Part shown: piece by piece, positions 53,722 to 64,000 of the stretch
Layout of the letters: each line of letters begins with the position of its first letter
Numbering within the stretch: the first letter of the stretch is position 1
Assembly (NCBI GenBank): GCA_963699545.1
Contig: CAVOUE010000004.1
Coordinates: 32,001-96,000, forward strand
DNA: 64,000 bases
Source: Nitrospirota bacterium
Lineage (GTDB): Bacteria > Nitrospirota > Thermodesulfovibrionia > Thermodesulfovibrionales > UBA9159
Direction of reading: 5' to 3'
Translations under genes and position numbers: made by a program
Notes under the pieces: model-generated
Database searches by the model: none
Seen by the model: only the letters and a program-made list of their open reading frames with translations
What the model was told of the DNA's origin: nothing

Positions 53722-54480
53722 ATGGACCGCGCCGTAAGGAGAAGGATCCGCAAGCATATTGACGCTTCTTTCGAGGACATGGAGGATCTTGTCGCCATCG
53801 AGAAAAAAGTGAGGATATCCGTGAATGGCAGAGAGATCGTCGGTCTTTTTTGCACGCCGCACATGGTAAAGGAACTCGTGGTTGGTCTTTTAATGACCGA
53901 GGGGATCATCAGGGGAAACTGGTGTGCCGACAGGATGAGCATTCTGTTCGGCGAGGAGGTCCTCGTGGACGTCCCTGCGGAAGGAGAGGTTATTACCGAA
54001 GGGAAGACCATTACCTCGGGGTGTGCGGGCGGCGTCACCTTCGAGAAGAAGATCGATGCGGGAACGATAACGGACCCTTTCACCATCGACAGGAACAGTT
54101 TGAGGTACATTTTTAGCGATTTCCAGGCGCGGTCGGAACTCTATAAGCTGACGGGTTGCGTCCACAGTGCGGCGCTTTCTGACGGGAAGGTTATCCTCTG
54201 TTTCGCCGAGGACATTGGAAGGCACAATGCAGTGGATAAGGTCATCGGTTACGCGCTCCTCGAAAATATTCCTTTTTCGGGAAAGATCCTGCTGGCCAGC
54301 GGGAGGATATCCTCAGAGATATCCTCCAAGTGTTCCCGGTGGGGCATCCCCATCCTCGCGACGCGCACGGCACCCACCAATCTCGCCGTGGAGATCGCGG
54401 AGAAGAGAGGCGTCACCGTCGTCGGGTTCGTGAGGGGCAACCGGTTCAATGTATATACACACCCGGAAAGGATAACGTAG
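53722..54480 (+). CDS. fdhD: Formate dehydrogenase accessory sulfurtransferase
   Basis: TSGC, TGCVH.AAL, EDIGRHNAVDK, SGRIS, GFVRG. Confidence 0.95.
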   Translation: MDRAVRRRIRKHIDASFEDMEDLVAIEKKVRISVNGREIVGLFCTPHMVKELVVGLLMTEGIIRGNWCADRMSILFGEEVLVDVPAEGEVITEGKTITSGCAGGVTFEKKIDAGTITDPFTIDRNSLRYIFSDFQARSELYKLTGCVHSAALSDGKVILCFAEDIGRHNAVDKVIGYALLENIPFSGKILLASGRISSEISSKCSRWGIPILATRTAPTNLAVEIAEKRGVTVVGFVRGNRFNVYTHPERIT

Positions 54481-54641
54481 AGAAGATCACCAGTCTGTCC
54501 TCCTATTTCGACAACTCGATCCCTTCTTATCTTAGCTTATTCCGTTCTTCAAAGAACCTCTGCAAATTTCGGGCAGATGAGTTATAATGATCATAGCGAC
54601 CATTATGATTGATATGGTAGAGACTTTAAGGAGGTTTCAGT

Positions 54642-54929
54642 ATGTTGAAAAAGATATCCGCGATAAAAGTCAGACAGAACCTCGGGCAGGTGATGAACGA
54701 GGTTGCTCTCAAGGAGGACGAGTATATTGTTGAAAGGGCCGGCAAACCCTTAGTGGCGATAATACCGATTGACCAGTATCAGCGCCTGAGGGGCGAGAGG
54801 GAAGATTTTTTTAGAATGGTGGGTGAAATACAGCAGGAGGCTGTTCGGTCAGACAGAAAGATTGTTGACTCGGAGATCGAAGAGGCGGTTAAGGCCTATC
54901 GGAAGTCCAAGAGCAAGACGAGGAAATGA
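54642..54929 (+). CDS. Phd/YefM family antitoxin
   Basis: RQNLGQVMNEV...YIVERAGKPLVAII. Confidence 0.88.
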   Translation: MLKKISAIKVRQNLGQVMNEVALKEDEYIVERAGKPLVAIIPIDQYQRLRGEREDFFRMVGEIQQEAVRSDRKIVDSEIEEAVKAYRKSKSKTRK

Positions 54930-55354
54930 CAAGAGTCGTCATCGACGCCAACCAGTTCGTAAGCGCCCTGCTCAAACCTGAATCCAACCCCGCCGATGTT
55001 CTTGCACTTGCGCGCCAGGGTAAGATTCAGCTGGTCATATCGCCTGAAATTGTTGATGAGATGAGGGCGGTGCTCCTCTACCCCAAAATCATGAAGCGCC
55101 ATCGCAGGACTTCAGCGCAGATCGAACTCTTTCTGAAGAGATTGCTGAAGACCGCGGCTGTCACTCATAGCGGGCCGAGGCTCGATGTTGTCAAGGACGA
55201 CCCTTCAGACAACAAATATCTGGAATGTGCTGTGGTGGGCAGGGCGGATTTCATTGTCTCAGGGGACAGTCACCTCACTGACCTGGGGACCTTCCGTGGC
55301 ATAAAGATAGTGACCCCGGCGCGTTTCCTGAGAACCATTAAAGAAATAAAGTAG
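54926..55354 (+). CDS. PIN-domain (PIN_3/VapC-like) toxin
   Basis: VVIDAN..VSAL, DPSDNKYLECA, IVSGD.HL. Confidence 0.92.
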   Translation: MTRVVIDANQFVSALLKPESNPADVLALARQGKIQLVISPEIVDEMRAVLLYPKIMKRHRRTSAQIELFLKRLLKTAAVTHSGPRLDVVKDDPSDNKYLECAVVGRADFIVSGDSHLTDLGTFRGIKIVTPARFLRTIKEIK

Positions 55355-55372
55355 CCTGTCCCCTTTTCAGTT

Positions 55373-55556
55373 CTTCCTGGCCACGTGCACGGCGCCCACC
55401 AATCTCGCCGTGGAGATCGCGGAGAAGAGAGGCGTCACCGTCGTCGGGTTCGTGAGGGGCAATCGGTTCAATGTGTATACACGTCCGGAGAGGATCGTTT
55501 AGGAGTCAAGGGCAGGACTTTTTAAGCCGCAGAGGAATCTACCTGATAACTCGCAC
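55373..55556 (+). repeat. fdhD 3'-end repeat copy 1 (about 130 bp of CDS plus about 50 bp tail)
   Basis: 55383-55502 aligns without gaps to 54361-54480, then GAGTCAAGGGCAGGAC...CCTGA tail. Confidence 0.95.
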
Positions 55557-55670
55557 GGCAGCTATCTCTCTAAATGTTTCTATGTCCGATAGTAATGCTG
55601 AGAGTCCGCAAAGGTATTCAGTCGAATCAAGGGCATTGCTTCTTTCCACCACACAAAGCATAATAAGAGC

Positions 55671-56033
55671 ATGAAAGTGGTGGAAAAAGATAAGGTCATA
55701 AGTGGGATGCTTCGCGATGAACTCAAGCGTTGTCAGGAGATGTTTGACAGACTTGAGAAGTCCGTATCTAAACTTCCGAAAGGTGTGATAAGCGAGAGGA
55801 AAAAGCGCTACAAGGATAAGGTGTATTCTTACTATTACCTGAAGTATCGTGAAGGGGAGAAAGTTATCGGCAAGCATATACCTAATAAGGAGATGCAGGA
55901 GATTTTAGAAAAGCTTGCCATGAGGAAAAAATATGAGAAGGAAATGCAGTCCTACGAAAAGAAAATTGCCTATCTGAATAAGATACTGCAAGCAGGCAGA
56001 AGAAGGGGACATGGAAGTATCGCTCACGAATAA
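55671..56033 (+). CDS. Hypothetical basic protein, partner of nucleotidyltransferase
   Basis: LPKG.I, YYYLKYREG.KV; overlaps the downstream gene. Confidence 0.75.
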   Translation: MKVVEKDKVISGMLRDELKRCQEMFDRLEKSVSKLPKGVISERKKRYKDKVYSYYYLKYREGEKVIGKHIPNKEMQEILEKLAMRKKYEKEMQSYEKKIAYLNKILQAGRRRGHGSIAHE

Positions 56034-56694
56034 GAACATTTTCCCGTCAGAAGTCCGAGAACTTTTGAGCGCATTTTCTTTGGTAGGATTCTTCAATGAA
56101 TCCCTTCTGATTGGAAGCTGGGTGATGCCCCTGTATCAGGAAGCTTTTGGCATCCCTTATGTCTTACGCACGCTGGACATAGATTTTGCGGTCAAATTTG
56201 CCCCCTTAGGCGGAGCAAAGAAAGTTGACCTCGAAAAGGTCATCACTGATCTCGGCTATATTCCTGTTGTCATGCAGTCAGGCATCCGTCGGTTTACTCA
56301 CGAAAATTTCACTGTTGAGTTCGTTGCACATCGTAAAGGTGGGCGGGATGAGCAGGTTGTACCAGTAAGAAAATGGAACATCACGGCATCACCCCTTCCT
56401 TTTGTTGATCTTCTCCTCAGCTTCCCGTTCACAGCAGATTTTGGAAACTTCAAGGTAAGGGCGCCACTACCTGAAGCCTTCTTCGTCCATAAATTGATTA
56501 CGGCCCAGAGAAGGCTGGGCGAGAGCAAGAAAGATAAGGACCTTGAGCAATGTGCCGCCATTGCCCGGCAGCTCGATACCGATCGGTTGGATTCGGTTAT
56601 AAGGTCACTGACGCTCAGTACGAAGACACGGAAAGCGCTGAGATCTTCATGCGAGGTAATCGATTTTCCTCCACAAAGGTTGGGGTTTAAGTAA
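56011..56694 (+). CDS. GSU2403-like nucleotidyltransferase-fold protein
   Basis: LIGSW, RT.DIDF, P.AF..HKL, K..KDL. Confidence 0.8.
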   Translation: MEVSLTNKNIFPSEVRELLSAFSLVGFFNESLLIGSWVMPLYQEAFGIPYVLRTLDIDFAVKFAPLGGAKKVDLEKVITDLGYIPVVMQSGIRRFTHENFTVEFVAHRKGGRDEQVVPVRKWNITASPLPFVDLLLSFPFTADFGNFKVRAPLPEAFFVHKLITAQRRLGESKKDKDLEQCAAIARQLDTDRLDSVIRSLTLSTKTRKALRSSCEVIDFPPQRLGFK

Positions 56695-56813
56695 ATATGT
56701 GGTGGAAATGATGACAGCAAAATTGTTCTCTGCGCGCGAAAAGAAGGATATAACAAAGAGCTGTCAATCCTTGGGATGTGTTTAATAACGGGATGTGTCC
56801 TAATATTTTCACG

Positions 56814-56903
56814 ACCGGTTCAATGTGTATACACACCCGGAGAGGATCGTTTAGGAGTCAAGGGCAGGACTCTTCAAGCCGCAGAGGACCCCACCTGATA
56901 ACT
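56814..56903 (+). repeat. fdhD 3'-end repeat copy 2
   Basis: ACCGGTTCAATGTGTATACACACCCGGAGAGGATCGTTTAG plus tail. Confidence 0.95.
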
Positions 56904-57065
56904 GAGACCCCGGTTATTTCAGCCAGACCGTTGATTTCTGAGAATAACTGTTATGGGAGAGGAGTCGCTTTGCTTCCCAATACCTTTCTGAAAATCGTAC
57001 GGGAGGCGACCATGCCAGCCTCGAACGATCTTGCCCTGCATCGTCCGTTGTTCTTTTTTGCTGCC

Positions 57066-57094
57066 TTGACTAATGGTAACACTTATGTTACTAT
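57066..57094 (+). promoter_or_regulatory. Sigma70 promoter with overlapping operator palindrome for the TA operon
   Basis: TTGACT-17 bp-TACTAT; GTAAC-ACTTAT-GTTAC palindrome. Confidence 0.7.
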
Positions 57095-57100
57095 TCTGAA

Positions 57101-57427
57101 ATGGAGAAAATAAAAGTAGTCGAGTATTTAGAAGATGGAGTGTCTGTTTTTGGAAAGTGGTTCTCCGGTCTTGATGCGCAGTCGGCCGCTAAGGCGGCCA
57201 CAGCTTTGTACCGACTTGAGCAAGGCAATCTCTCTAACGTGAAATCGGTAGGGCAGGGAGTTTCGGAATACAAGATTGATTTTGGGCCGGGATTCAGGAT
57301 TTATTTTGGTCGTGAGGGCAATACATTGGTTGTCCTGCTTGGAGGAGGCTCTAAGAAGACACAGAGCAGGGACATAAGAAACGCCCAAACAATGTGGGCG
57401 CGATACAAGAAGGAAAAGAGAAAGTAA
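57101..57427 (+). CDS. RelE/ParE (HigB-like addiction module killer) toxin
   Basis: K.VG.GVSE..IDFGPGFRIYF, LLGGG.K..Q..DI. Confidence 0.9.
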   Translation: MEKIKVVEYLEDGVSVFGKWFSGLDAQSAAKAATALYRLEQGNLSNVKSVGQGVSEYKIDFGPGFRIYFGREGNTLVVLLGGGSKKTQSRDIRNAQTMWARYKKEKRK

Positions 57428-57436
57428 GGAGGTACT

Positions 57437-57760
57437 ATGCCGATTACGAAACAGTTTCGCAAAACAGTTTTGAAGCGTGCCGAAAATGATGCGGAATTCC
57501 GCAGACATTTGCTGACAGAGGCGGTTAGTGAACTGATCACGGGAGATCTTAATGCTGGCAAATCAATTCTCCGTGATTATATTAATGCGACGATCACATT
57601 TGAGGGGTTAGCCAAGAAACTCAACAAATCGAGCAAGAGCGTTCATCGTATGCTTGGATCTGCGGGTAACCCGAGAGCTGAGAATATTCTGGATATCATC
57701 AAGATGCTTCAAGCGCATGAGCATGTCACACTTCAGGTAAGGGCAAAACGGGCCGCCTGA
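57437..57760 (+). CDS. HTH antitoxin of the addiction module
   Basis: LRDYINAT, RML...GNP. Confidence 0.85.
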   Translation: MPITKQFRKTVLKRAENDAEFRRHLLTEAVSELITGDLNAGKSILRDYINATITFEGLAKKLNKSSKSVHRMLGSAGNPRAENILDIIKMLQAHEHVTLQVRAKRAA

Positions 57761-57823
57761 GAGATGACTATTGAATTAATGGTAATGTTGATACTTGGTA
57801 AGAGTCCTTCCTCCTCGTCAAGT

Positions 57824-57926
57824 AGGGGCAACCGTTTCAATGTGTATACACACCCGGAGAGGATCGTTTAGGAGTCAAGGGCACGACTTTTCAAGCCGCA
57901 GAGGACTCTACCTGAAAGTCCGCACG
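57824..57926 (+). repeat. fdhD 3'-end repeat copy 3
   Basis: AGGGGCAACCGTTTCAATGTGTATACACACCCGGAGAGGATCGTTTAG plus tail. Confidence 0.95.
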
Positions 57927-58085
57927 TTTTATTGATCTCGGCGATGAGGAATGCCGGGTGAAACCTGGTGGTCCAAAGAAAGAATGAAGGTCTGCGCCCA
58001 AATGACATCAGATGACATCTTCCGTACTGAGAACTGCCTTAAACATGTCCTTGACAGCATGTGTATATTGTGATAATATACAGCA

Positions 58086-58388
58086 ATGATAGATCGGCAG
58101 CGCATCGAAGGCTTTGAATGGGATCAGGGCAATGCACGAAAGAATGAGAAGCACGGTGTTACGCAGGCAGAAGCGGAGCAGATATTTGTCAATCAACCGT
58201 TGCTGTTATTGCCCGACGAGGAACATAGCCATAGGGAGCTGCGATTTCATGCCTTGGGCAAGACAAATGAGGGACGCCTTATACACATCTCTTTCACTTT
58301 AAGGGACAATGGGACACGAATAAGAATAATTTCAGCGCGAGCTATGCATTGAAAAGAAAGGAGTATTTATGGGCAGGAGACATCTTAA
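58086..58388 (+). pseudogene. brnT: BrnT toxin with premature TGA at 58350-58352
   Basis: FEWD.GN..KN.KHGV, E.R...LG, RIISAR; read-through gives the family tail KERSIY. Confidence 0.8.
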
Positions 58389-58641
58389 ATCAATACCGAA
58401 ATTCAAGTCTGAAGCTGAAGAGCGGAAGTTTTGGGAAACTCATGACTCAACAGATTACCTGGACTGGTCGAAGGCAGAGCATGTGGGATTTCCGAATCTG
58501 AAGTTGTCCACTCAAGCAATATCTATCAGATTGCCAATTTCGCTGCTGGAACAGATAAAAATAGAGGCCAATAAACGCGATGTTCCCTATCAGTCTCTTA
58601 TCAAGGTCTGGTTGACGGAGAAGGCGCATCACAAAGCATAG
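58369..58641 (+). CDS. brnA: BrnA/CopG antitoxin
   Basis: IPKF.SE.EE..FW.THD, ISIRLP, PYQSLIK. Confidence 0.88.
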   Translation: MGRRHLKSIPKFKSEAEERKFWETHDSTDYLDWSKAEHVGFPNLKLSTQAISIRLPISLLEQIKIEANKRDVPYQSLIKVWLTEKAHHKA

Positions 58642-58891
58642 GATTCCTGTTTGCGGCTTGCTTGAGACAAAGAAGAGGACAGGCGGCTGTCCCTTTTGTC
58701 CCTTTTCTCTGCCGGGGATCGGAGAAGTCGTTTCACTTGAGAACAAATACTATAGACGCATTGAAATTATTGGGGAATACTGGTAGAACTATAGTTGTCG
58801 AAGACGGGAATTAGGTATCAGATCGTCAGGAAAGGTTGGAGCGGAAAGAGGCTCAGATGGAAAAACGGGATGTGTCCCCAATATTTTATCA

Positions 58892-59113
58892 GGATTCGGT
58901 TATAAAGTCACTGACGCTCAGTACGAAGACACGGAAAGCGCTGAGATCTTCATGCGAGGTAATCGATTTTCCTCCACAAAGATTAGGGTTGAAGTAACTA
59001 TGTGGTGGAAATGATGAAAGCAAAATTGTTCTCTGCGCGCGAAAAGAAGGATCTAACAAAGAGCTGTCAATCCTTGGGATGTGTTTAATAACGGGATGTG
59101 TCCCTAATATTTT
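58892..59113 (+). repeat. About 220-bp diverged duplicate of 56589-56809 (3' end of nucleotidyltransferase gene plus downstream DNA)
   Basis: Near-identical sequence with scattered substitutions. Confidence 0.95.
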
Positions 59114-59191
59114 ATGTGTACACACACCCGGAGAGGATCGTTTAGGAGTCAAGGGCAGGACTTTTCAAGCCGCAGAGGACTCCACCTGATA
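59114..59191 (+). repeat. fdhD 3'-end repeat copy 4
   Basis: ATGTGTACACACACCCGGAGAGGATCGTTTAG plus tail. Confidence 0.95.
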
Positions 59192-59430
59192 CTCGACACC
59201 ACAGACAATCTCGCCAAGAGTGTTGAGTTCCAAAAAAAACTGTTACATTCAAGGTCCTCTATTCCCCCCACGCTAAGATTAAAGACCTGACCCTCTCTCC
59301 TCTCTCTCAATAGACGGGCGTCCTACCTGTCGGTAGAGTAGAGAAGTGGAAATGTTGACAGAATGAGGGCCGTTGCCGTTCCCTTTCCGAACAACACTTG
59401 GCTTGTCATTGCAGAAATTAAAGGACTCTT

Positions 59431-60342
59431 TCAGGGGTTGACCTCCAGCAATAGTTTCAGTTGCTCAAGTATTCCCGCTGCGATAAGACTGCCTGCGGTA
59501 CCCTCTAGAATGCTCCTGATGGTATGTAGGCTCTCCATGATAATCTTCGTCTTAGGTTTCGGAGAGTTCGCCTGCGTTTCAGCCGTGGCAATCTCAGCAG
59601 AGAGTTCGTTTCTTATCTCAGGGGCCAGGTTCAGGCCGGCGACCGTCCTTTTTATCTCCTTCAAAACCGACAAGACCTTCGCCACGTCGAGCTCGTTGAC
59701 GGTCATCGTCTGCGAGGAATTCCGAGTGCCTTGCTGAAGCTGAGAATGCATCATGCTCCCTATGTAGGTCTGTATATGGTAAACATTTGACGCCGCAACA
59801 CGTTGTTCTTCCTTCGTGAAGGTCAAGTCTTCTCCAAGGATGCCATCTTGTTCCAACTTCAATGCCCATTTCAGAACCGCATTTCGTACGGCATCAATTA
59901 TCTTGGCAAGATCTGTAACGCTGATTTGAAGCACTGGCTGTACAGAAGCCCCACCCATTGCAGACCTCAGCGACTCCTCCATCTTCTTCTCAAATTCAGT
60001 CCAGATGACGGTCTCTGCATTTGCTTCTTTTTGTAGGCTGGCTATCTCCGAGATCGGCTGGTTAAAATTCATCGTGGATATTTTCTCAGCTTTTCCCGGG
60101 TCAGGAATCCTCACGGGTACGAGACCCTGAACTCGGTCCAGACACTTCAGAGAGCCTATGACCTTGCGATAGTGAGGTATTTTGTTGTCTTTTTTGTATC
60201 CGTTCAACTCAAGTTCGATCCATTCTTGAAACTCCTGTACCCCGATCTTCGTCGCAACGGCGAGCGCCTTTCGGAGAAGATCTGTAACCGGCACCGTCGA
60301 ATCTATCGCTTCTTTCTGTAGCTCCAGAACCAATGAAGACAT
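59431..60342 (-). CDS. AbiTii-domain protein, copy 1
   Basis: SLVLELQ..A.D....TDLLRKAL.VA.K, W...ELNGY, IP.YR, W.LKLE.DGI.GE. Confidence 0.8.
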   Translation of the reverse strand: MSSLVLELQKEAIDSTVPVTDLLRKALAVATKIGVQEFQEWIELELNGYKKDNKIPHYRKVIGSLKCLDRVQGLVPVRIPDPGKAEKISTMNFNQPISEIASLQKEANAETVIWTEFEKKMEESLRSAMGGASVQPVLQISVTDLAKIIDAVRNAVLKWALKLEQDGILGEDLTFTKEEQRVAASNVYHIQTYIGSMMHSQLQQGTRNSSQTMTVNELDVAKVLSVLKEIKRTVAGLNLAPEIRNELSAEIATAETQANSPKPKTKIIMESLHTIRSILEGTAGSLIAAGILEQLKLLLEVNP

Positions 60343-60838
60343 TCCTATGCCTGCCCCTTCATTTTCTCGATGATCTTCATGGTCTCCACTCTGACGGTGC
60401 AGACCCGTCGGGGGTGACGGATTTTCCGTTTGTCCCAAGCAGGGAGATTTCGGTCACGAGTTCGAGTCTTTCTTATGGGCGTATTTGTTCAAGAGATTGT
60501 AGGATGCATTTCTGACCGTGGTCTCGTTCCTTGATCCTCCGAATTGGTGGATTCGGTCGAGCTTGGCATAATACTGATTGATGAGCTGAATAGACAACGA
60601 CTATCTTTTCTCCCTTTTCATATGCAACAACGTAGTCACTCAAAATTGTACTACAAAGGGAATAGGACATTCCATATTTTTCAGGACATTCAAGCATGGG
60701 GACCTTGGGTGTGGTTCTCGATATTAAAGGTGAGCTTTTTAGGGCTGATTAAGTTCTTCTTGAGTGAAGTCTGAAGACCTGACCATCAGGCGTCTCCTTA
60801 AGGGGATCGGCGGAAGACGACGGCTGCCCGTTCTATCG

Positions 60839-61732
60839 TCACAAGAGACAGTTCAATTTCGCCAGCAGCCCTGAGGCTATCAGACTGCCCGCGGTGCCTT
60901 CCAGAATGTTCCTGACTGTGTGGAGGCTTTCCCTGATGATCCTATACTTGGGCTTCGGGGACTTCGCCTGCGTTTCCGCCGTGGCGATCTCGGCGTCAAG
61001 CTCGTCCTTCGTCTCGCGGGGCAGGTTAATATCCGCCACGGCTTTCTTGATCTCGTCCAGGACCGACAGGACTTTCGAAACGTCCAGTTCATTGACGGTC
61101 ATCGACTGGCTGCTGTCGCGGGTGTCCTGCTGGAGCTGAGACTGCGTCATGCTGCCGATATAGGTTCCGATGTGATAGGTTCCGGATGATGCTGCGTGCT
61201 TCTCTTTCAGCGTAAAGGTCATGTTCTCCCCGGTGATGCCATCCTCTTCGAGCTTTAGCGTCCAGTTGAGGATGACGTTTCTGACTGAGTCAATTATTCC
61301 TCGCAAAACCGAAGGATCGATAATGAGGGCGGGCTTGAGGGCGGCAGCACCCTGGAGTTCGATCAGCATTTGCTCCTGGTCAGGCGGATAACTCATGACA
61401 ATGATGCTCGACTTGTCGTTTGTCAGAAGCGATTCCAGTTCTCCCACTGCTTGGCCCTGAGGATAGCATGAGACCACTTCGGCAAGCTTTGCTGGGAGAC
61501 GAAATTCAATCCAGCCGTTAAAAGGGTTCCAGCACCTTACCTGTCCCCTGACATTTCGATACTCGGGGATGGCAAGTCCCTTGCTGTATCCGCCAAGTTC
61601 CGACTCCGCCCAGAGCTGAAACTCCTTTATCCCCAACTTTCTGGCAACGACGAGCGCCTTGCGGAGAAGATCGGTGATCTGCACTTTCGAGTCGAGCGAT
61701 TCTCTTTGAAGTTCCAGTACCAGTGATCCCAT
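60839..61732 (-). CDS. AbiTii-domain protein, copy 2
   Basis: Same motifs; WNPFNGW; paralogue of 59431..60342. Confidence 0.8.
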   Translation of the reverse strand: MGSLVLELQRESLDSKVQITDLLRKALVVARKLGIKEFQLWAESELGGYSKGLAIPEYRNVRGQVRCWNPFNGWIEFRLPAKLAEVVSCYPQGQAVGELESLLTNDKSSIIVMSYPPDQEQMLIELQGAAALKPALIIDPSVLRGIIDSVRNVILNWTLKLEEDGITGENMTFTLKEKHAASSGTYHIGTYIGSMTQSQLQQDTRDSSQSMTVNELDVSKVLSVLDEIKKAVADINLPRETKDELDAEIATAETQAKSPKPKYRIIRESLHTVRNILEGTAGSLIASGLLAKLNCLL

Positions 61733-62230
61733 GTTCAATCTTACTACAAACGGGTCTTTTTCCTCTATCTCCCATTGAGTGCGCTGCAATCTTTCCGGTA
61801 TAGATGTCACCTGAAAGTCCTCACCTTAGACCAATCGCCAAGGACGTTGATTACCAGAAATAATTGTCACACTGGAGGATCCATTATGCAGCTTCTTAAT
61901 GCCTTCATAGAATCCTACTGGAATCACTCTGGAATCCCCATTGACCTTATTGTCAAGAAGGTGTAGATTTGAAATAACCATCACATCATAGGGTCATCCC
62001 ACTTATCTAAATTCTTGGAAGAACACTTTTGCTGTGCGCTGGAAGACAGATGGATTGACCAAGGAACGGAAGCGGTAGTAGAATTTGATAGATCAAAGGG
62101 GCTCTCTCACGCTCTGATCAGCATTGATGTGTAAACTTAGGGATCTGGAATAGTGTCATGAATGGGTCTTAAGGTACACGGAATCGTGGGAAGTACTAGC
62201 GACTTGATACCCTCATGGTAGGAGGACTAT

Positions 62231-64000
62231 TTGGCTGTTGACCCAATTTCTTGGGCAGTTAATTTTGGTCTAACGACACTAGCAAGAGGCACCTTTGAGG
62301 TGGCCTTTAAGAGCCTCTCTGCTAAACTTGAGGGTGCCGTAAGAGACTGGAGCAACGAACTACCTGCCGATGTCCAGTTTAATACCGAAGCGTTATTCGA
62401 TGGTCTAAGACGGGACTACGAGAAGTCAGACTTCCCTGCGCGTACAGCCCCCGGTAAGGAATTTGAAGCGTCTCGCATTCCGACGATGGACATGTGGCTT
62501 CAGGCGCTTCTTGAAAGATGGCAATTTGTGCGCAGAGGTAACAACGTACAAGAGTTCTTCAAGCAGCCAATAGATGTGGCCGAAGCTCAGCTGCGGACTC
62601 TATCTAAACGTCTTGAAACAGTTTGCGCACAGAACGAAGAGCTATTTCGGGTTACCACTTACGAACTGATATCAGCTTTGGCTGCTAAATTTGTTCAGCC
62701 AGAGCATCCGCATTTCCCAACGGCCCTTGTCGATCAGAAAATTGAGGATGAGATCAATGTATGCCGGAAGTGTCGCTTCTTCGAAGAGTTTGACACGGCT
62801 GGGTCTTCTCTGAGACTCGCAAGAAGTCTTCTGGACGGAGAACTGTCCGGCGGTACAAATGCGGCAAGGAGCCGAGCACTATCTTGGTGCGTTCGATTTT
62901 TGGCACGAATCGAAGACGTAGAAGAAGCAGAAGAGTATCTCAGAGTTGCGAAAGCATTAGGACTTTGCCCTGAAATCGAAATCGCCAATGCCTTCATCCT
63001 TTCGCAGAAGGGTAATAAGCACTCTGCTCTAAGTGCCCTGGCTGAGATCGATTTGCCAATATCTCGATCCGCGGCTTTGATGATTGTTGCGCATCACGAT
63101 GGCCCAAAGGCGGCAATTGACTGGCTTAATGCCGCAGGGATCGAAGCTGCGGACCTTGATCCTGACGGTAAATTTTTTCTCTTAGTGCGTTATCTTCAGC
63201 TTTCTCGTTGGGAGGCAGCTCTGAAATGCCTGGAGATAGTGACAGAAGATGATTTGATAGAGACACCGGTCCTCCATCGCATGATGGCAATCACACGCCT
63301 ACTACCTGCGGTCCCCGCCGAGTTTCGCGCTGTTGTGCTTAATCAGCTTCCGTTTGAAGCGGCAGACTTCCCACTTGCCTCAGACTCGGCTGCTATTGCA
63401 ACTCGCAAAGTAGCGCAACAGCACTTTGTGAATGCTGCGGAGTCAGCACGCCAGTTAAACTGTCCTGTTGCGGCAAGAATAGATGAGGAGTACGGACTTT
63501 GGCTTCAACTAAGAGATCCCGAAGAATTTGGAGAGGGAAAGAAGCATCTCGAGGCTAAGCTTCGTGATCCCGAGTCAGCTCTTCGCCTCGTTCATCTTGG
63601 CCTCCAATTTGGGATCAAGCTGGACTTGGAAGCAGTTGAAAGGGAGATTGAGCGGCAAGTTGCTCTCAATGGAGGAATGACTCGTGACGCGGCAATTGCC
63701 CGCTTTGCTTTGGCTTTTACCCAAAAGACTCCAGAGGACATTGCGAGCTATATCGCCCGGCATCGTGACGAGCTTGCCGACTACTTTGATAAGAAATCTA
63801 TGCAATTTCTTCAGATCGAGATGCTTGCTCGCGCTGAGCTGCCAGAGAGAGCGACTCAGTGTCTGGAGAGTCTTTTGCGAGATGGGCTTTCCGAAGAGGA
63901 GGAAAGTCGTCTTCGGCGAATAATTGCTGAAGCAGAAGGGACTGATCCGGTTGAGGCACGAAAAGAACAGTTTATTAATACAGACTCCTTGGGTGATCTG
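62231..64000 (+). CDS. Large helical-repeat protein, partial (at least 590 aa), not in the ORF track
   Basis: GGAGG RBS plus TTG at 62231; frame stays open to the window end (MAVDPISWAVNF...TDSLGDL). Confidence 0.8.
   Translation, partial: MAVDPISWAVNFGLTTLARGTFEVAFKSLSAKLEGAVRDWSNELPADVQFNTEALFDGLRRDYEKSDFPARTAPGKEFEASRIPTMDMWLQALLERWQFVRRGNNVQEFFKQPIDVAEAQLRTLSKRLETVCAQNEELFRVTTYELISALAAKFVQPEHPHFPTALVDQKIEDEINVCRKCRFFEEFDTAGSSLRLARSLLDGELSGGTNAARSRALSWCVRFLARIEDVEEAEEYLRVAKALGLCPEIEIANAFILSQKGNKHSALSALAEIDLPISRSAALMIVAHHDGPKAAIDWLNAAGIEAADLDPDGKFFLLVRYLQLSRWEAALKCLEIVTEDDLIETPVLHRMMAITRLLPAVPAEFRAVVLNQLPFEAADFPLASDSAAIATRKVAQQHFVNAAESARQLNCPVAARIDEEYGLWLQLRDPEEFGEGKKHLEAKLRDPESALRLVHLGLQFGIKLDLEAVEREIERQVALNGGMTRDAAIARFALAFTQKTPEDIASYIARHRDELADYFDKKSMQFLQIEMLARAELPERATQCLESLLRDGLSEEEESRLRRIIAEAEGTDPVEARKEQFINTDSLGDL

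Follow-up and report, generated by a model that had tools for sequence, protein, structure and literature searches.

A tail-duplicating array of toxin-antitoxin cassettes behind fdhD in a Nitrospirota bacterium and its probable link to TIRYT transposases

The closest described relatives of the locus reported here are the TIRtrons, in which Y1 transposase genes are framed by inverted repeats of the consensus GGGGWSAS (Di Nocera et al. 2013, PMC3733652). Their enzymes, the TIRYTs or TnpA-Y1 subclass 2.1, are given as the second largest Y1 subclass, with 14.9% of species (Quentin et al. 2018, PMC6006769). According to the parts of these two papers considered here, such systems also comprise dispersed families of terminal inverted repeats (TIRs), TIR dimers, characteristic protein motifs and a C-terminal helix-turn-helix (HTH); the same parts contain no biochemistry, and few works in the literature searched name TIRYTs at all. 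Here we describe a stretch of 64,000 nucleotides (nt) from a Nitrospirota genome, hereafter the window (C4:32001-96000; assembly of 3.04 Mb, 87% complete), in which 5'-truncated copies of the tail of fdhD separate four two-gene modules, namely Phd/PIN, DUF6788-like/nucleotidyltransferase (NTase), RelE-type/putative antitoxin and BrnT/CopG. We propose that single TIRs serve here as right ends of small, non-autonomous toxin-antitoxin (TA) cassettes which home to this locus, a reading to which we give a probability of about 0.6.

Six motifs of three types (A, B and C), one of them a hairpin variant, are present in the window (Table 1). All are on the + strand, at the positions given by an earlier interpretation of this DNA (the sequence-only reading). 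A genome-wide count, as proposed there, gave 34 sites for motif A with a strict pattern versus 1 in the reversed genome; a looser pattern gave 36 versus 1, and 3-4 in three Markov shuffles. Motif C has 4 sites versus 0, and motif B is above chance with the strict pattern only (14 versus 3), counts with loose patterns being at chance level. Three outward-facing pairs of motif A, 100-160 nt apart, are found on contig C3, and with these pairs motif A has the form of a dispersed TIR family with dimers.

The assembly carries two Y1_Tnp genes, both located outside the window's contig. Motif A frames the gene on C3 and motif C the gene on C6, an association that the sequence-only reading had envisaged; the combination that would have spoken against that reading, motifs elsewhere without any link to junctions together with the lack of an HUH transposase in the genome and relatives, was not found. 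In a protein-family search independent of the motif, motif A was present on both sides of 5/5 close homologues of the C3 enzyme. It is present on both sides of 12/12 homologues with at least 50% identity, seven of these chosen by motif, and motif C lies upstream of 9/10 homologues of the C6 enzyme with at least 50% identity, all chosen by motif. The reverse complements of the motifs (GGGGACAC or GGGACAC for A, GGGGACAG for B and GGGGTCAG for C) fit GGGGWSAS. Translations of the two genes contain the signatures NHVH/WE/YxxxNP and NHYH/FQ/YxxxNP, which agree with subclass 2.1 when compared by eye, not by profile, with Table 1 of PMC6006769, and a C-terminal HTH match was obtained on the C6 protein only. 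With the IS200 profile NF033573 one enzyme scored 24.9 against a cut-off of 55, and the other gave no match. The motifs are almost certainly terminal inverted repeats of TIRYT transposases. The cassettes of the window are not TIRtrons proper: each has only one TIR, always on the + strand, and contains no Y1 gene.

All four fdhD tail copies terminate in ACCTGA, after which comes a related left end, and the cassettes extend from this common left end to a TIR. The left end also opens five mini-elements without cargo, of which four reach a terminal motif A after about 90 nt. It likewise opens a second, 97.7% identical copy of the complete NTase cassette on contig C5, which ends at the matching TIR. 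Every left end starts at YACCTGA, as seen in a check for a fixed target for which the relatives were too diverged to provide an empty site. The array was furthermore compared with contigs of four unrelated runs (X1-X4). Relatives of the BrnT cassette in other runs begin at 57906-57910 and one stops at 58874, and a relative of the PIN cassette in run X2 stops at 55362. Run X4 has the junction of TIR B with the fdhD tail and also an A-type TIR to which a truncated PIN tail is joined after 9 nt, both in contigs of one run that are not tied to one genome. An assembly artefact could be ruled out, the repeats being 88-97% and not 100% identical and the TIR B-fdhD-tail junction being present in run X4. 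The largest share of sampled words in any run was 0.11, and a 20-mer of the fdhD spacer was found in 0 metagenome contigs.

The left-end family is rare outside this genome. Among 401 genomes of the phylum, single one-mismatch matches to its pattern were obtained in 28 others (two in one genome), with 14 control matches; 3 matches in genome contigs of unrelated taxa were taken as chance, and convincing profile matches are limited to L263, L324 and L325. A hairpin at the left end was considered and dropped, its folding being no better than that of shuffles. In genomes G001 and G011 the fdhD stop codon lies inside TACCTGA, i.e. the left-end letters (L033:1094-1101; L174 near 9910), which may be the original target or chance. 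On C3, a C5 methylase/DUF4928 pair has a left end and an A-type TIR as neighbours; IS3-like open reading frames (by eye) are inserted between (L039:2413-6141).

The truncated duplicates of the window begin at 55375, 56814, 58892 and 59114, which is 11-16 nt past the motif core or 0-6 nt past the full motif of the sequence-only reading, where 0-5 nt had been given. No duplicate follows the motifs at 58677 and 59281, and for tail copy 3 (57824), previously described as lacking a clear motif, only GAGTCC was found, 17 nt upstream. A 5'-truncated duplicate starting 11-19 nt downstream of a TIR with cargo between (type I) is present at 6/52 strict TIR sites of the genome versus 0.06 expected: four in the window, one on C12 and one flanking the C6 transposase unit. 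Duplicates ending at or just before a TIR (type II) were likewise found at 6/52 sites, versus 0.21 expected, one of them being merely the shared left end of two elements. Among the type II cases is a second array, on C6 (L037:15857-17656), where Fic and HicB-type modules are surrounded by three tails of a glyoxalase gene, each of which terminates in motif B.

Outside the genome, motif A junctions were tested at 124 loci (32 genome regions, 13 viral loci and 79 of 119 metagenome matches) and C/B junctions in 60 regions. Of these regions, 4 were centred on B-type places and 56 on C-type places, the latter selected out of 141 listed ones for how far they lie from the start of their contig. Short-read assemblies break at such repeats, which may conceal some junctions. 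Duplicates ending just before motif A numbered 8 versus 1.6 expected. At C/B sites type II gave 7+7 versus 0.6 expected, an excess that is partly due to the resemblance of TIR copies to one another. Viral C/B matches of 14-15 letters look like chance coding matches; they were left out of the junction tests and entered the homologue checks only. The C6 unit (L062:2464-5522 = C6:292463-295521) consists of the C-type TIRYT and a 197-amino acid (aa) unknown gene between 573-nt, 94%-identical tails of a P-type ATPase gene, with an ACCTGA left-end-like site about 200 nt left of its left TIR. In L101 (G029:C8:3600-13600) a three-copy array of repeats ending in C-type TIRs was observed, its gene pairs being HEPN/nucleotidyltransferase-like by eye.

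Short stutters, defined as exact tandem repeats of at least 7 nt beside a TIR, were counted as well. They are present at 16/97 A sites, versus 21/3000 AT-matched positions and 12/2910 shuffled flanks, and 8 of the 16 begin exactly after GTGTCC. At C/B sites, counted without a separate control, 23/86 have a tandem repeat, four of these being element-internal heptamers; 7 of the 23 begin at TGACCCC or GACCCC, i.e. at or next to ACC^TGA, which equals the left-end letters. The 9-nt stutter at 58688 is short of 8-9 nt in contigs of 4/4 runs. E. coli TnpA-REP is reported to cut C^T, for example GACC^T, and a model of nicking, extension and rejoining has been proposed for it in the sections of PMC3333891 considered here. 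By analogy, the combination of a fixed start and a variable end looks like the trace of a nick, a short extension and rejoining, and the letters suggest ACC^TGA as the joining site, it being also the start of the left end. The ACCTGA left end, the stutter footprint and the duplicates ending at a TIR go beyond the sequence-only reading.

Of the other HUH systems, REPtrons, i.e. TnpA-REP with repetitive extragenic palindromic (REP) sequences and bacterial interspersed mosaic elements (REP-BIME; Ton-Hoang et al. 2012, PMC3333891), share the chemistry, and their GACC^T-like sites match B, C and the left-end letters; that paper proposes amplification by nick-extend-rejoin and the capture of genes at the flanks. 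They differ by a GTAG-footed hairpin, which is not present here. The window motifs fold no better than shuffles (z -1.5 to +0.5), A stutters begin at C^C, no stable hairpin with a GT[AG]G foot was found, and a GTAG start is seen in the copy at 55351 only. The term REP-like, as used in the earlier interpretation, is structurally wrong because of this folding result. Its view of the motifs as HUH/Y1 sites acting in trans is upheld to the extent that A and C frame Y1 genes on other contigs, but they are TIRYT repeats and not REP/RAYT or IS200 ends. We infer that the cassettes are mobilised by TIRYTs.

IS200/IS605 elements (IS608, ISDra2) have in common with the cassettes unequal ends, the Y1 fold, cargo between the ends and some copies without duplication. 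As described in the sections of PMC3333891 considered here they have no terminal inverted repeats and no flanking direct repeats, whereas both are present here. An IS200-type TnpA (Y---Q) was not recognised, the two enzymes falling below the IS200 cut-off. Rolling-circle elements of the IS91/ISCR/Helitron kind use larger Y2 or Rep-type enzymes. They share one fixed and one variable end and the acquisition of neighbouring genes (PMC3333891); a Y2_Tnp search gave no match in the genome, but none in any control genome either. TIRtrons are already known. The single-TIR cargo cassettes, the ACCTGA left end, the stutters, the tail duplications and the arrays are not described in the parts of PMC3733652, PMC6006769, PMC5581495 and PMC11708052 considered, or elsewhere in the literature searched, supplements not included; Figure 9 and the additional files of PMC3733652, like the figures of PMC6006769, may be relevant to this.

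The full-length fdhD ends in ERIT*, like that of both genus relatives, and the tails end in ERIV*. Across five tail pairs 49/77 changed codons are silent (p 6e-5 to 0.04 versus 'duplicate then decay' nulls, depending on the null), a bias that stems from fdhD, the ATPase and the regulator; in fdhD tail copy 1 the share is 6/9. Among the four fdhD tails only 3-7 differences are seen over the final 70 nt. For 876 nt the NTase of the window matches the C5 copy exactly, and then comes a diverged patch in common with its tail duplicate, which may be taken as a sign of recombination between alleles. Because of the silent-site bias, the ERIT*/ERIV* split and the NTase patch, we favour the view that the tails would have arrived as alleles of other strains; an identical pattern would result if the full gene had been replaced by another allele afterwards.

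Nicking by TIRYTs probably produced these junctions. In the homing-cassette model, a TIRYT encoded elsewhere would nick one strand at a TIR. The side of the cassette would thereby keep a free 3'-OH, and this end would be extended by 10-20 nt. The extended end could rejoin the displaced strand and leave a stutter, or alternatively join an unspecific point in upstream host sequence, which would give a unit of truncated host tail, cargo and TIR. To enter a related chromosome, such a unit could rely on homology of its tail, or else combine homology at one side with the nicked end at the opposite one. With every round one truncated tail would be added, and the array would grow between fdhD and the pilR-like regulator. 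Tentatively, and with clearly less confidence, subclass 2.1 Y1 enzymes might more generally run an integrase-free cassette system, nicking dispersed TIRs and releasing cargo plus a host-gene piece as homing arm, whereby TA and defence modules would stack behind ordinary genes. If true, the growth of TA/defence arrays behind housekeeping genes without integrase would be explained. That motifs which frame TIRYT genes also bound TA cassettes behind a housekeeping gene suggests that such enzymes help bacteria to acquire defence genes. The locus yields predictions at base level: a cut after GTGTCC by the A enzyme and at ACC^TGA by the C enzyme, a left-end partner and a natural cargo.

Several observations weigh against the homing-cassette model. 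The A copies at 56788 and 59091, with their junctions, lie within one 367-nt duplicated block (56589-56953 / 58892-59245), and therefore the four junctions, which the sequence-only reading had counted separately, amount to about three independent events. The geometry of one fixed and one variable end, also noted in that reading, does recur outside the window, but type I is absent at 46/52 TIR sites of the genome, and motif A elsewhere (genomes, metagenome and viral contigs) gave 2/165 versus 0.9 expected, i.e. no enrichment. At C/B sites elsewhere type I was seen in 3/87 versus 0.23 expected, one in a repetitive region; the two clean cases are Phd/RelE-type modules by translation. TA-type matches have a TIR within 1 kb in 6/24 cases versus 0.65 expected, leaving 18/24 without, and numerous further local direct repeats of this genome are not accompanied by a TIR. 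No clear TIR was found at tail copy 3 or at the 328-nt regulator-tail duplicate of the island. The NTase-cassette copy on C5 and the mini-elements lack flanking duplications, for which reason target duplication by every cassette was rejected. A and C stutters imply differing cut registers. The silent bias is weak in the NTase and RelE tails; of the changed codons in the glyoxalase tails, which are outside the 77-codon total, 2/8 are silent. No cognate enzyme for motif B was found in the 87%-complete assembly or in the homologue checks, biochemistry of subclass 2.1 was not found in the literature searched, and a base-level empty site was not found, searches in 5 relatives, which are too diverged, having matched only the flanking genes.

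Some of these points would fit TIRs that are passive passengers, with mini-elements and TA cassettes gathering in tolerant intergenic hot spots, tails resulting from one-sided homologous uptake of foreign alleles, and the AT-rich TIR flank being a frequent illegitimate break point. The unenriched motif A geometry outside the genome, the TIR-less tail duplications in the island and elsewhere and the TA-type matches without a nearby TIR agree with such an origin, and the silent-site bias is compatible with allele uptake by any route. We nevertheless consider it unlikely, given the narrow offset of 11-19 nt in 6/6 cases across three motif types, the stutters with a fixed start, the common orientation of all window TIRs and the ending of cassette homology at the TIR core in other samples. 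Slightly less probable is a transposon bounded by left end and TIR, whose insertion at ACCTGA would copy a long stretch of target, variable in length, in cis as an extended target-site duplication, with divergence of the copies in place afterwards. It would account for the ACCTGA plus left end at all four fdhD tails, for their close similarity over the last 70 nt, and for the diverged patch that the window NTase shares with its tail duplicate and that is missing from the C5 copy. It is at odds with the C5 copy and mini-elements, as they carry no duplication, with the PIN unit, the C6 TIRYT unit and the G152 and G090 cases, where ACCTGA is missing at the left junction, and with ERIT* in the full fdhD and genus relatives versus ERIV* in the tails, the differences being mostly silent.

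That the array is an integron, or an island of a tyrosine recombinase that uses the fdhD tail as its attachment site, is very improbable and already largely refuted. Sedentary integrons likewise form tandem arrays of small TA-rich cassettes at one locus, and the presence of repeats that restore the 3' end of a gene also speaks for this reading. Against it, 0/6 phage-integrase matches are on contig C4, no attC-like core pair is present within 54471-59360, the repeats vary in length at their 5' end, promoter-like leaders are kept, and the spacers are host gene tails.

The array occupies the gap between fdhD and a pilR-like sigma-54 regulator gene, about 15 kb in this genome (Table 1). In 11/13 relatives examined fdhD abuts the regulator without an island, in 2/13 it has different neighbours, and the array was present in 0/13. 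The BrnT gene has a premature TGA at 58350-58352, about 10 codons early, and the toxin may be inactive owing to it.

Table 1. Coordinates of the array, its motif cores and the two Y1 transposase genes (window positions, unless a contig is named).
Feature	Position	Strand	Basis or remark
fdhD, full-length host gene heading the array, ends ERIT*	53722..54480	+	Pfam FdhD-NarQ, E 5e-68
Possible degenerate B-type TIR, putative start of PIN cassette	54491..54508	+	from sequence only
Cassette 1 cargo: Phd/YefM antitoxin and PIN toxin	54642..55354	+	profile matches
B-type TIR, right end of cassette 1	55351..55368	+	run X2 contig match stops at 55362
Motif B core AGCCTGTCC	55353-55361	+	sequence
fdhD tail copy 1 (5'-truncated, ERIV*) and spacer ending ACCTGA	55375..55546	+	92.6% to 54353-54473
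Left end LE1 (YACCTGA-N7-CAC family)	55540..55610	+	common to five mini-elements and C5 copy
Cassette 2 cargo: DUF6788-like protein and NTP_transf_8 nucleotidyltransferase	55671..56694	+	97.7% copy at C5:354850-353578
A-type TIR with AT-rich tail, right end of cassette 2	56784..56810	+	C5 copy ends there too
Motif A core GGGATGTGTCC	56790-56800, 58867-58877, 59093-59103	+	sequence
fdhD tail copy 2 and spacer to ACCTGA	56814..56898	+	sequence comparison
Left end LE2	56892..56965	+	profile seed, so match not independent
Cassette 3 cargo: RelE/ParE-type toxin and putative antitoxin (no family match)	57101..57760	+	TIGR02683; Gp49
fdhD tail copy 3, upstream TIR not clear	57824..57915	+	sequence comparison
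Left end LE3	57909..57990	+	X1, X2 contig matches begin at 57910, 57906 with other flanks
Cassette 4 cargo: BrnT toxin and CopG antitoxin	58086..58641	+	profile matches
B-like hairpin TIR with 9-nt stutter (58688-58705)	58677..58705	+	8-9 nt missing in 4/4 runs
Hairpin variant motif	58677-58692	+	sequence
A-type TIR, right end of BrnT unit	58861..58889	+	run X2 contig match stops at 58874
5'-truncated NTase-tail duplicate including second A-type TIR (core 59093-59103)	58892..59113	+	97% to 56589-56800
fdhD tail copy 4 and spacer to ACCTGA	59114..59189	+	sequence comparison
Cargo-less mini-element: LE4 and C-type TIR (core 59283-59292)	59183..59293	+	layout as C3, C5, C12 mini-elements
Motif C core AGACCTGACC	59283-59292	+	sequence
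Left end LE5, before TPR-GreAB-C-PIN-type system leaving the window	61808..61890	+	left-end match
Y1 gene, 223 aa	C3:267512-268180		framed by inverted, outward-pointing motif A
Y1 gene, 282 aa	C6:294020-294868		framed by inverted, outward-pointing motif C

Downstream of the mini-element lie two tandem genes with AbiTii domains (59431-61810, - strand), which share about 73-77% identity over parts of their length. A C-like motif is located between the two at 60775, and a left end follows at 61808. In the same island, a defence pair of the TPR-GreAB-C-PIN type (window 62231-64000; L061:987-6846) encodes a PIN protein of 1310+ aa and a permuted GreAB-C protein of 645 aa. The far end of the island carries a second copy of the regulator tail (328 nt, 90% identical), and a FitA/PIN module is located between the two pilR-like regulator-tail copies (L061:6926-8721 = C4:100425-102220), in which 17/25 changed codons are silent.

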